DNA from: a virus
Taxonomy: Duplodnaviria > Heunggongvirae > Uroviricota > Caudoviricetes
Virus record (IMG/VR): IMGVR_UViG_2703718802_000004
Span: 1-4,785 of that record
Length of the DNA: 4,785 nucleotides
Direction: 5' to 3' (one strand)
This document shows, piece after piece, positions 1-3,000 of this stretch (position 1 is the first letter of the stretch; the number at the start of each line of letters is the position of its first letter). Made by a program: the position numbers.

Positions 1-3000
1 CCTGGTGGGGAAATCTGCGTTTGTGGAAGCCAGTGGCCGGGCGAGCAATGATGCGGAAGGGTATCTGGACTTTTTCAGAGGAGAAATCGGGAAGACACAT
101 CTGGCACAGGGGATGTGGGAGCTGATTGATAACAGCCAGCTTGACGATGAGATGGCGGAGATGAAGACCACCATCACAGAAACCCGCAATGAAATCACGC
201 AGACGGTCAGTAAAACCCTGGAAGACCAGAGCGCGACCATACAGCAGATACAGCGGGTGCAGACAGACACAAATAACGACCTGGCTGCGCTGTATATGCT
301 GAAGGTGCAGAAAACGAAAAACGGCATTCCGTATGTTGCCGGTATTGGTGCGGGGATTGAGGATGCTGATGGCCAGACGCTGAGCAATATTCTGCTGCAG
401 GCGGACCGTATCGCGATGATTAACCCGGAGAACGGCAACACCACGCCGCTGTTTGTGGCGCAGGGGAATCAGCTGTTCATGAACGACGTGTTCCTGAAGC
501 GACTGTTTGCAGTGAGCATCACCTCGTCCGGCAATCCCCCGACGTTCTCCCTGACGCCGGAGGGCAGGCTGACGGCCCGCAATGCGGACATCAGCGGACA
601 TATCAGTGCGAACTCGGGCACGCTGAATAATGTCGTGATAGCGGAGAACTGTACGATAAATGGCACGCTGAAAGCGGAGAACATTATTGGTGATCTTGTG
701 AAATGTGCAGGGGTGGCTTTTCCGGTGGATGGTAGTTACCTTGCGAACGGTACACGAACGCTGACGGTGTATGACGATCACAGCTTTGACCGGCAGATTA
801 TAATCCCGCCGATAATCTATGTCGGGTCAAAACAGGAATCCCGTACCAGTAATGACATCTGGACAGAGTGCTTCCTGCATGTTGATCAGAATGGACGCCG
901 GATTTATTCAGGCAGGTCAGTGACAGAGCCGGGAATTTTCAGCGGGATCATCGATATGCCAGCTGGCGGTGGTCATATCACCCTGAGTTTTACCGTGAGC
1001 TCACGGCGTCAGAATAACAGTTGGGGCAGTTCACGAATCAGTAACCTTCAGGCGATAGTGGTGAAGAAAAACAGCGCGGGGATCAGCATCCGCTGAACAT
1101 CGCGCCCCGGGATTGCCGGAAGGAGACAAAAACCGTACAGTATGCGCGGGTGCCTTTGGCTGATGGCCGGAGGGAACACCTGAAGGCCGGATGTGAAAAG
1201 GCCCCGGACAAAACATTCATGTTTAACCCGAGGCCTGACGTTCTTCCTTCAGCAAGAAGAAGGTTAGCGCCTCTCCGTAAAAGGAGCAAGCGTTATGTCG
1301 CAAAAACCGTTAAAAACCACCGTGATTTGTATCACGGTAGTGCTCATTATCTGGATCACCCACAGTTCACTGTGCGAGTTCCGGTTCCGGATAGCGGGCG
1401 CGGAGATTGCGGCGTTCTTACAGTGTAAGCGGTAAGAAACCGTGGCGGGGGAGTGTACCTTCCCCGCCGACCGGTTGCTGAGGGTGATCAGCCGGATGGC
1501 ACCGTTTTAACACCAACAAACCACAAATATTACCGCAGGCCGGGAAACCGGTCCTGCGGTTTTTTTATGGGGGAAATCCATGACAGTCAGAATATCGGGT
1601 GTGCTGAAGGATGGTACGGGAAAAGCGGTACCGGGATGCACGATAGAGCTGAAAGCGCGCCGTACAACGGAGACGGTGATTGTCACCACGGTGGCGTATG
1701 GTCAGCCGGGGGAAACCGGCAGTTACAGTATGGATGTTGAGCCGGGTCTGTACCGGGTGACGCTGAACACGGAAGGGTACGCGCCGTCATATGTGGGTGA
1801 CATTCTGGTGAAGGCGGATTCTGCACCGGGAACGCTGAATAAATTTCTGATGGACCTGGAAGACGCACAGTATTACCCGAAAGCCCTTGCAGAGCTGGAA
1901 GCGGTGGCAGCGGAAATCCTGAAACGTGCGGAAGCGTCAGCGGCGAGTGCAGAGGAAGCGAAGAAACGGGCAGAGAATGCGCGGGGACCGAAGGGGGATA
2001 AGGGAGACACCGGGCCACAGGGTATTCCCGGGCCAAAAGGCGATACCGGTGAGCGTGGGCCAAAGGGTGAGCGTGGTGAGAGGGGGCCGCAGGGGCTTCA
2101 GGGTGTGAAAGGTGAACGGGGAGAGAAGGGCGAAAAAGGCGAGCCGGGCGGACCGGATGCGACGACGGCACAGAAGGGAATTGTGCAGTTAAGCAGCGCA
2201 ACGGACAGTGATGATGAAACGAAGGCAGCCACCCCGAAAGCGGTGAAAGCGGCAATGGACAAAGCGGACGGATGCCTGGAGAAAGCGAAAAACGGTGACG
2301 ATATCCCGGATAAGGTGAAGTTTCTGAACACCGTGGGAGCAGCCAGAGTATACGGGCGGGACATTCATACGGGGGCCGGTGAATGGACTACGAGCGAGTT
2401 TGTCGCCTGGCTGAAAGAAAAAGGGGCATTTGACCAGCCTTACTGGATGATGAAGGCATCACTGCATGCGGGATTCAATAAGGTCATCACGGATGTCGGA
2501 CCGGGAAAACTTAATCTGGGGGGCTGTGTCATTGAGGTGATGGGGAAGTATGAGGCAGCCATAGTCCGGGTCACCATTGGCGAATACGGTGCAACGGGGT
2601 TTATTAATGGCACGGTCTGTACCTGTACGGTTTACGGCGACACACAGTATTTCCACTGGCGGGTGGATTACAGCACAAAGAACAAACCGGATACGGTCAG
2701 CCAGCGGGATGCCAGCACGACGCAGAAAGGTGTGGTGCAGTTAAGCAGTGATACTGGCAGTAATGACGAAACAAAGGCAGCCACGCCGAAGGCCGTGAAG
2801 GCGGCAATGGATGTGGCAAATGAAGCGAAAACAAAGGCAGAAGAGGCTGCAGCAGGAGGTGGTGTTCCCGGTCCGAAAGGAGAGAAAGGTGACCCCGGAG
2901 CACAGGGTCCGAAAGGTGAAACGGGAGCAACAGGCCCCGCTGGTCCGCGAGGAGCGCAGGGACCGAAAGGGGAGAAAGGCGACCCCGGTCCCAGAGGTGA

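Follow-up and report, generated by a model that had tools for sequence, protein, structure and literature searches.

What does a lambdoid prophage carry in the place where lambda has lom, after the tail-tip gene J and before stf, the gene of the side tail fibre? The question is raised by a stretch of 4,785 nt of viral DNA (IMG/VR record IMGVR_UViG_2703718802_000004), which is called the window here and to which all coordinates refer. The spacer between the two genes spans 1097-1579 (483 nt). An earlier note on this DNA had placed a Hok/Gef-like type I toxin module in it. The present analysis indicates that positions 1113-1567 are very probably an autonomous type I toxin-antitoxin (TA) cassette of the hok/sok type, a moron that an Escherichia coli lambdoid prophage carries between its genes J and stf. 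The J-stf hok cassette is already known: its gene has been annotated and catalogued, and a published toxicity screen includes it.

The hok gene and its product

1295-1435, plus strand: hok toxin gene, 46 amino acids (aa), identified by Pfam, PHROG, RefSeq and a published clone

No gene of the size of lom is present in the spacer, as the earlier note had stated. The three largest open reading frames (ORFs) listed for 1097-1579 encode 92, 68 and 61 aa, compared with about 200 aa for Lom, and none of the ORFs has a Lom or Ail match in Pfam. The 46-codon ORF to which the note had pointed is located at 1295-1435, with its ribosome-binding site, the Shine-Dalgarno (SD) sequence AAGGAG, at 1281-1286, 8 nt 5' of the ATG. 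The translation is MSQKPLKTTVICITVVLIIWITHSSLCEFRFRIAGAEIAAFLQCKR. The proposed Hok/Gef identity was confirmed by the Pfam family HOK_GEF (PF01848), which matches over profile positions 8-42 of 42 with 43.5 bits, where 22 would suffice as the gathering score (E 2.4e-11). PHROG 251, a family of the moron category labelled 'MokW-like host killing', matches with an E value of 3.4e-21. The predicted basic N-terminus and single transmembrane helix are also in place. Residues 1-7 contain two lysines, residues 8-22 form the only hydrophobic span (Kyte-Doolittle maximum of 2.51) and the final 19 residues are charged.

The conservation of the peptide was studied in an alignment of the window with nine homologous loci, later extended to 64 distinct modules from IMG/VR and RefSeq. 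Exactly 46 codons are retained in 62 of the 64 modules, and the median dN/dS of hok is 0.25 over 641 pairs. In a peptide alignment that includes K-12 and R1 Hok sequences, C12, T14, L26, E28 and E37 are invariant, together with C27. A published logo of 1,264 Hok peptides has M1, C16, T18, L30, C31, E32 and E41 conserved in over 80% of them (bioRxiv 10.1101/2025.08.07.668861). These positions align with M1, C12, T14, L26, C27, E28 and E37 of the peptide.

The identical sequence is present in RefSeq as WP_000078853.1, 'Hok/Gef family protein'. The peptide and its coding sequence (CDS) are also those of entry 79_1563, plasmid LRP163 (pAZ3-79_1563), in Table S2 of the survey by Escalera-Maurer et al. 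(bioRxiv 10.1101/2025.08.07.668861). The 141-nt CDS of 79_1563 has no mismatch to 1295-1435. According to the survey, IMG/VR contains 6,290 Hok homologs, 9.3% of Escherichia phages have a Hok, and hok is four-fold enriched in prophages. On arabinose induction in a drop assay, 42 of 45 homologs were toxic; the three homologs named as non-toxic are 19_179, 60_1482 and 69_1540. Because the identical clone belongs to this panel and is absent from the three named non-toxic homologs, we infer that the hok CDS is toxic to E. coli. The inducible-expression experiment proposed in the earlier note has in effect already been done.

The protein is the same in RefSeq, in the survey and in the window. RefSeq and the survey cover the CDS alone. 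Neither describes the RNA elements or the Sok-like gene, nor do they deal with the lack of mok or the J-stf slot; the survey deliberately set mok and Sok aside. The only phage record with a full-length J-stf spacer is KF030445.1 of Escherichia phage 1720a-02 (4312-4792, 96% identity). Its spacer is labelled 'hypothetical protein (x2)', so the cassette is unannotated in this record.

The hok mRNA and its antisense RNA

1113-1141, plus strand: candidate weak sigma-70 promoter of hok, with -35 TTGCCG at 1113-1118, a 17-nt spacer and -10 TACAGT at 1136-1141
1148-1567, plus strand: predicted full-length hok mRNA of about 420 nt, with a presumed 5' end
1149-1164, plus strand: 5' element, tac-like, forming a helix with 1487-1503 in the minimum free energy (MFE) fold
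1246-1254, plus strand: upstream arm of a long-range helix, ucb/dcb-like, pairing with 1476-1484 in the closed full-length form
1265-1295, plus strand: helix sequestering the SD, 1265-1276 with 1283-1295
1443-1469, plus strand: conserved hairpin directly 3' of the hok stop codon, part of helix 18
1476-1503, plus strand: 3' regulatory elements, comprising the long-range arm 1476-1484 and the fold-back element (fbi-like) 1487-1503
1532-1567, plus strand: intrinsic hok terminator, with 13-nt arms at 1532-1544 and 1548-1560 followed by seven T

The limits of the transcription unit are suggested by comparison of the modules. Homology begins at the hok promoter, with blastn coverage from 1112-1127, and across phage contexts it ends right after a GGCACC(C) box at 1498-1504. 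The strong terminator recognised in the earlier note consists of the arms and T run listed above. It is confined to the J-stf clade, and other clades carry their own terminators. Since homology starts at the promoter, stops after GGCACC(C) and is completed by a terminator of its own in each context, its bounds are taken to mark out an autonomous hok transcription unit. The hexamers of the promoter that the note had put forward as possible exist, and both are conserved in position in homologs from unrelated contexts (TTGCC.. for the -35; TAAATT, TAGATT or TACATT for the -10). The assignments of this promoter and of the Sok promoter are based on conservation and on the analogy with sokW.

The 5' end of the mRNA was placed with Rfam. 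Model RF01794, named as sok or hok leader, in fact models the sense-strand hok leader, and its position 1 falls on 1148. It matches 1148-1306 over the full model (positions 1-157) with 50.3 bits and an E value of 2.2e-9. The leader appears to be a diverged relative of the RF01794 seed sequences.

The RNA 1148-1566 has an MFE of -192.2 kcal/mol (z = -9.9 in comparison to shuffled sequences). The predicted helix between 1149-1164 and 1487-1503 represents the tac/fbi fold-back of R1-type systems. Its GUGCC/GGCAC core is retained in 60-62 of the 64 distinct homologs; the core pairs are nearly invariant, so covariation is neutral on them. The 5' end has an alternative partner: 1149-1157 can pair with 1197-1205, an inverted repeat (I12) that forms the 5' stem in the Rfam alignment. 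In the MFE fold, the long-range helix 1246-1254/1476-1484 comprises 9 bp. The SD-sequestering helix is paired in 94.6% of the alignment cells across the 64 sequences, with one-sided changes only.

The fold was examined by projecting the MFE structure of 1148-1566 onto the 64-sequence alignment. The projected structure has 81.5% of cells paired, compared with 38-47% when the 3' partners were slid by 1-3 columns, and 29 pairs have double-sided changes compared with 12-17 in the slid controls; these counts are somewhat favoured, as the structure was taken from one member of the alignment, and the informative parts are the slid controls and the double-sided changes. None of 500 shuffles reached the observed covariation score. 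Two helices have the best support. In 1246-1254/1476-1484, both partners changed in six of the nine pairs, with 86% of cells paired. Helix 18, the stem 3' of the hok stop, has six double-sided compensatory pairs and 94% of cells paired. Covariation across the 64 distinct modules supports the predicted fold.

The earlier note had described a type I module by its toxin. The hok cassette was borne out; the antitoxin that would make it a type I system had been overlooked and is predicted on the minus strand, from about 1254 to 1195.

1195-1254, minus strand: predicted Sok-like antitoxin RNA of about 60 nt, with a single-stranded 5' tail, a stem-loop at 1236-1199 and UUUU at 1198-1195
1261-1289, minus strand: Sok-like promoter, with -35 TTGCTC at 1289-1284 over the hok SD, a 17-nt spacer and -10 TAACCT at 1266-1261
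1231-1273, plus strand: Sok-target stem-loop of about 43 nt, with lower stems GAGGC/GCCUC and CUGAC/GGUUAG, a covarying upper stem and the loop CUUCAGCAA
1237-1260, read on both strands: hypervariable stretch of 24 nt; one strand gives the 5' tail of Sok, the opposite strand the target loop with its upper stem

At the level of sequence, a cis-antisense gene with its own promoter lies opposite the hok leader. The predicted RNA has its complement in the leader, at 41-100 nt upstream of the hok ATG. Its stem-loop and U run have a folding energy of -21.6 kcal/mol, and its ends were set by analogy with sokW. The layouts match: the predicted 3' end is GGGGCCUUUU, that of sokW in phage 933W is GGGGCUUUU. 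The -10 hexamer of the Sok-like promoter is located inside the 15-mer AGGTTAGCGCCTCTC, in which none of the collected homologs differs.

The target on the hok leader is predicted to be a stem-loop in all variants. All 23 distinct versions of the target form the same structure, with -15.5 to -22 kcal/mol and z values of -2.5 to -5.5. The loop terminates in GCAA, and the RF01794 model has an equivalent hairpin. A shorter hairpin, 1237-1263, was discarded: folded alone it gave inconsistent energies of 0 to -5.5 kcal/mol, and consistency required the GAGGC/GCCUC stem.

The stretch 1237-1260 is the most variable part of the module. Within the J-stf clade its mean pairwise difference is 0.264, a figure somewhat inflated by ragged alignment, compared with 0.010-0.067 for the rest of the module. 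The 64 sequences contain 23 versions. Even near-identical J-stf copies differ here (e.g., A1: L148, L150), and the hairpin is kept by compensatory changes. Variants in the J-stf slot include GACGTTCTTCC..., GACCATTCATCC... and GACTTTCGATC.... This stretch may be a specificity determinant between paralogous copies. Its hypervariability is consistent with selection for pairs that do not cross-react where several copies share a genome.

1219-1428, plus strand: overlapping 'mok-like' frame of 69 codons from ATG 1219; the frame is open over 1150-1428 and ends 7 nt before the hok stop codon

The second frame in which the earlier note had seen a likeness to mok exists and ends 7 nt before the hok stop. 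It is not conserved. An ATG, GTG or TTG in this frame occurs in only three of about 18 J-stf copies, namely L147, the window and L001, which is identical to the window. The coupled, overlapping leader of R1-type systems, which is the Sok target, was not found in the clade as a whole. Start codons in the frame are likewise a minority among all 120 copies of the cassette. Single-nucleotide indels between SD and ATG shift the frame among near-identical copies, and in many copies it terminates mid-hok. The product has no significant match in Pfam or NCBIfam and none in PHROG. Because few copies have a start and indels shift the frame, the frame is most likely fortuitous. A leader ORF in the other two frames was ruled out: the hok frame is closed upstream by an invariant TAG at 1265-1267, the third frame by TAA at 1278-1280. 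The 46-aa Hok subfamily has no conserved leader ORF, unlike R1, hokC and hokW.

Access to the SD was studied by partition-function folding. The predicted probability that the SD is unpaired is 0.00 in the full-length RNA, 0.00-0.08 in truncated RNAs and 0.00 in the Sok-bound RNA. Three other homologs behave similarly, and only the Stx-phage copy L137 reached 0.2-0.3. Both alternative pairings, that of the 5' end with 1197-1205 and the stem-loop 1231-1273, are encoded, and the equilibrium-folded truncated RNAs keep the SD closed. A mok-independent switch, in which the target stem-loop competes with the anti-SD helix, so that the SD would open on 3' truncation and be shut again by bound Sok, was considered and dropped on the finding that the SD is paired in every modelled state.

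Spread, relatives and genomic context

The 120 copies of the cassette could be classified by insertion slot: 73 lie after ogr in P2-like prophages, at the prophage end or close to it, about 21 after lom in Stx phages and about 18 between J and stf. Each slot has its own Hok lineage. The recurrence in three unrelated phage slots, each time with its own boundaries, agrees with the self-contained moron that had been proposed for the position between J and stf. The ogr slot is the commonest home (L005-L008 and about 70 IMG/VR loci, e.g., L162 and L240). The distance of a match there to the end of the contig or prophage is often about 160 nt, which puts the cassette beside the attachment site.

At least five complete E. 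coli genomes have the spacer 1097-1579 with 100% identity and an unchanged order J-hok-stf, and about 100 have it with at least 95% identity. Strains 89-3156 and 2011C-3911 are examples with an identical locus. Of 5,426 complete E. coli genomes, 1,750 contain relatives, at up to nine related places per genome. A search of 596 Gb of genome contigs with the 15-mer AGGTTAGCGCCTCTC yielded almost only chance matches from unrelated phyla; two of 120 loci passed a loose filter for a hok-like ORF, of which at least one was a false positive. A decayed copy is found in the J-stf slot of E. coli CI5 (L004 2688-2798), with a GTG start and a 36-aa ORF. An internal deletion has removed the hok C-terminus, the 3' untranslated region (UTR) and the fold-back element and has fused the ORF to the clade-specific terminator.

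A known relative is hokW-mokW-sokW of the Stx phages 933W and Sp5, likewise a prophage-borne hok/sok cassette; experiments on phage Sp5 have established hokW-sokW as a type I TA system (Takada et al. 2021, PMC8621323). The true locus in 933W was located from the published primer sequences. It has in common with the J-stf cassette the 5' start GCGGGTGC and a AGGTTAGC box that contains the Sok -10 TAACCT. The sokW promoter is TTGCCT-17-TAACCT with 6 nt to +1, and its -35 overlaps the hokW SD, as in the J-stf Sok. The hokW locus also has a 3' element complementary to its 5' end. The annotated sokW of 933W is 71 nt long and ends in GGGGCUUUU; the J-stf Sok-like RNA has about 60 nt. HokW represents a different lineage, Gef-like and of 51 aa (MKQQKAM...YESEK), compared with 46 aa for the J-stf Hok. 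The latter is about 35% identical to a HokD/Gef-type sequence that is a few positions off HokW. The ATG of mokW is in frame with hokW, whereas the aligned J-stf position reads CCTTCAGCAAG and holds no start codon. The hokW locus lies away from the tail genes, the J-stf cassette among them.

The sister cassettes after lom (933W, Sp5 and other Stx phages) and after ogr (P2-like prophages) belong to the 46-aa subfamily, as survey cluster 72 (72_1589 and 72_1621). Both entries were also part of the toxicity panel (bioRxiv 10.1101/2025.08.07.668861). Protein identity with the J-stf Hok is 61-63%, DNA identity about 75-78% across the whole module. All RNA elements are common to these cassettes and the J-stf cassette, and mok is likewise absent; insertion slot, terminator and Sok-target sequence differ. 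In 933W, the second hok cassette is situated between lom and L0129 (L002 4171-4311, record about 45660-45800) and encodes a 46-aa peptide, MSQKSLITVTICM.... It is about 13 kb from hokW, so 933W and Sp5 have two hok-family loci. It was unannotated in the original record and is labelled 'MokW-like host killing' by pharokka. An assignment of hokW as the closest relative in 933W was rejected, because the primers give the MKQQKAM start and the true locus lies elsewhere in 933W.

In the R1 system, as established by Gerdes and colleagues, the full-length hok mRNA is closed and mok is needed for hok. R1 hok/sok and the J-stf cassette belong to the same Pfam family, and both have a cis-antisense gene against the leader and a sequestered hok SD. 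Both follow the same logic, in which the full-length mRNA is closed by pairing between 5' and 3' elements. The J-stf Hok is about 28% identical to R1 Hok. Where R1 hok requires mok translation, the J-stf subfamily is without a conserved mok. R1 hok/sok stabilises a plasmid; the J-stf cassette sits in a phage late operon.

The morons lom and bor of lambda, the classic examples expressed in the lysogen, are comparable in layout: an autonomous insert with its own promoter and terminator in the same position, from J to the side tail fibre. Lom is an outer-membrane protein, to which the J-stf Hok is unrelated in sequence or function. In Stx phages, the sister cassette directly follows lom.

5-1096, plus strand: 3' part of J, the tail-tip attachment gene, encoding the C-terminus of the tail-tip protein; upstream neighbour outside the module
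1580-3307, plus strand: side tail-fibre gene stf; downstream neighbour outside the module
4292-4540, minus strand: DinI-like gene (Pfam DinI, 64 bits)

The product of 5-1096 matches the Pfam families Ig_GpJ_C (130.2 bits) and Phage_Tail_Tip (90.3 bits) and is labelled gpJ in RefSeq at an identical locus. The product of 1580-3307 matches phage_tail_N (137.9 bits), Phage_fiber_2 and collagen repeats, with a concordant RefSeq label. In its translation, two Gly-X-Y tracts resemble collagen, and the motif QKG(I/V)VQLSS... is duplicated internally, corresponding to two Phage_fiber_2 repeats. The gene at 3349-4020 encodes a DUF4376 protein with a weak match to tail-fibre assembly proteins. E. coli 89-3156 has its genes here in the order L, C40 peptidase, tail assembly protein, gpJ, WP_000078853.1 and tail fibre, followed by the DUF4376 protein, the DinI-like protein and the host genes yecD and aspS. 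Because this order runs into yecD and aspS, the window is taken to be the right end of an E. coli lambdoid prophage. Its own right end (4541-4785; L001 9443-10326) enters the prophage-host junction, and past this point the identical RefSeq locus continues with a truncated pseudogene, yecD and aspS. A perfect CTGT-N8-ACAG motif (CTGTAGTTATGTACAG) is located at 4556-4571, 16 nt upstream of the start of the DinI-like gene. It is the sole match in the whole window, with 0.04 expected by chance, and looks like a LexA/SOS box.

Control, function and alternatives

How might the cassette work? In the predicted closed form of the mRNA, the 5' end is held on the fold-back element, the long-range helix joins the 3' UTR with the target region, and the bases of the ribosome-binding site are paired. 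By analogy with the R1 paradigm and hokW-sokW, this stable full-length mRNA would be translationally inert. Slow 3' trimming would strip the fold-back element; the 5' end would then re-pair with 1197-1205 and expose the stem-loop 1231-1273. The short-lived Sok-like RNA would bind the target loop for as long as it is made, and the duplex would be destroyed. Once Sok synthesis stops, by prophage loss, transcription shut-off or induction, Hok would be made and would depolarise the inner membrane. Speculatively, Q-antiterminated late transcription on induction would cross hok and oppose the Sok promoter, which could plausibly set off the toxin. Because the cassette is co-oriented inside the late operon, late transcription could supply hok RNA and occlude the Sok promoter. 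In the hokW system, mitomycin C caused a loss of sokW RNA and a RecA-dependent production of HokW (Takada et al., PMC8621323).

Several observations weigh against the reading as a hok/sok-type TA cassette. The best NCBIfam matches of the peptide are both well under their curated cutoffs: the HokA equivalog NF007290 with 38.2 bits against 89 and the Hok subfamily model NF007279 with 37.0 bits against 73. For this reason the peptide is regarded as a Hok relative of HokA and as none of the named K-12 paralogs. The hok promoter matches the consensus at 8 of 12 positions, below the threshold of a promoter scan that called no promoter on either strand, the hok and Sok candidates included. The RF01794 score is below the gathering score of 59. 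The ends of the hok mRNA and of Sok are all inferred, not mapped. The published toxicity was obtained with an overexpressed bare CDS behind a foreign SD, a caution given by the authors of the survey themselves (bioRxiv 10.1101/2025.08.07.668861). A further point concerns translation: mok is not conserved and the SD is predicted to stay paired after 3' truncation (probability of being unpaired at most 0.08), so the reading does not account for translation of Hok from the native RNA.

A rival reading is a silent relic, a peptide that is toxic if forced, whose native mRNA is never translated without mok and which hitch-hikes in a permissive slot. The missing leader ORF in all frames and an SD paired in every modelled state would fit such a relic, as would the J-stf copy of E. 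coli CI5 with its hok cut to 36 aa and earlier reports, cited in the survey, of mostly inactive chromosomal hok copies in K-12 (bioRxiv 10.1101/2025.08.07.668861). A relic is nevertheless improbable. The 46-codon ORF has been kept in nearly all modules (62 of 64) with a median dN/dS of 0.25, the RNA helices have compensatory changes and the -10 of the Sok promoter is invariant, which together argue against a dead element. A target that diversifies and yet keeps its hairpin is hard to explain without selection on an RNA-RNA interaction, and relatives are present in 1,750 of the 5,426 genomes. In another rival reading, control would be canonical, with ATG 1219 starting a 69-codon Mok whose translation opens the hok SD and is itself blocked by Sok. 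The frame 1219-1428 is indeed open in the window, in L001 and in L147, and its ATG is within the region complementary to the predicted Sok. About 15 other J-stf copies and most copies overall, however, have no start in frame; 1-nt indels shift the frame in near-identical relatives and many frames stop mid-hok. The ATG itself is predicted in a hairpin loop, with no SD-like sequence seen just upstream, and the ATG of the hokW mok lies elsewhere, aligned to CCTTCAGCAAG and in frame with hok. The product of the frame matches no family. Control by this frame is considered quite improbable.

The hok/sok-type cassette may serve different ends, and the sequence alone does not separate prophage addiction, phage exclusion and lysis help. 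Anti-phage defence of the lysogen, by abortive infection or superinfection exclusion and in place of addiction or lysis help, is rather unlikely to be the role. A precedent is R1 hok/sok on a high-copy plasmid, which lowered the plating efficiency and plaque size of T4, a modest exclusion (cited in PMC8621323). The J-stf slot is a typical moron position, and prophages often carry defence genes, a role that the survey raises as a possibility (bioRxiv 10.1101/2025.08.07.668861). The Hok peptide, on the other hand, matches no family of PADLOC-DB v2 at E values up to 0.01, and hok is reported not to be enriched near defence systems or defence islands (bioRxiv 10.1101/2025.08.07.668861). The only prophage hok locus tested, hokW, raised phage release on induction: a hokW deletion mutant released two-fold less phage (Takada et al., PMC8621323). 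No sequence feature tells these roles apart.

A more far-reaching version of the hok/sok-type cassette is possible and is put forward tentatively. It combines a mok-less hok/sok variant (clusters 72 and 79), a hypervariable specificity code and late read-through as the trigger of the J-stf toxin. In the mok-less variant, the antisense RNA would control hok by duplex-triggered decay, or by a structural or standby-ribosome effect. The code would reside in the 24-nt target/tail stretch and would let several copies coexist in one genome without cross-neutralising.

The absence of mok and the hypervariable target in a phage-borne lineage are modest new observations. Compared with the rest of the module, diversification of the Sok target is 4- to 25-fold faster, with the hairpin retained, which suggests selection for orthogonal toxin-antitoxin pairs. 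The three defined moron slots provide clean isogenic contexts for tests of addiction, exclusion or lysis timing. A large phage-borne Hok lineage that seemingly works without the mok regarded as essential in the R1 paradigm offers a natural system for the gating of hok translation.

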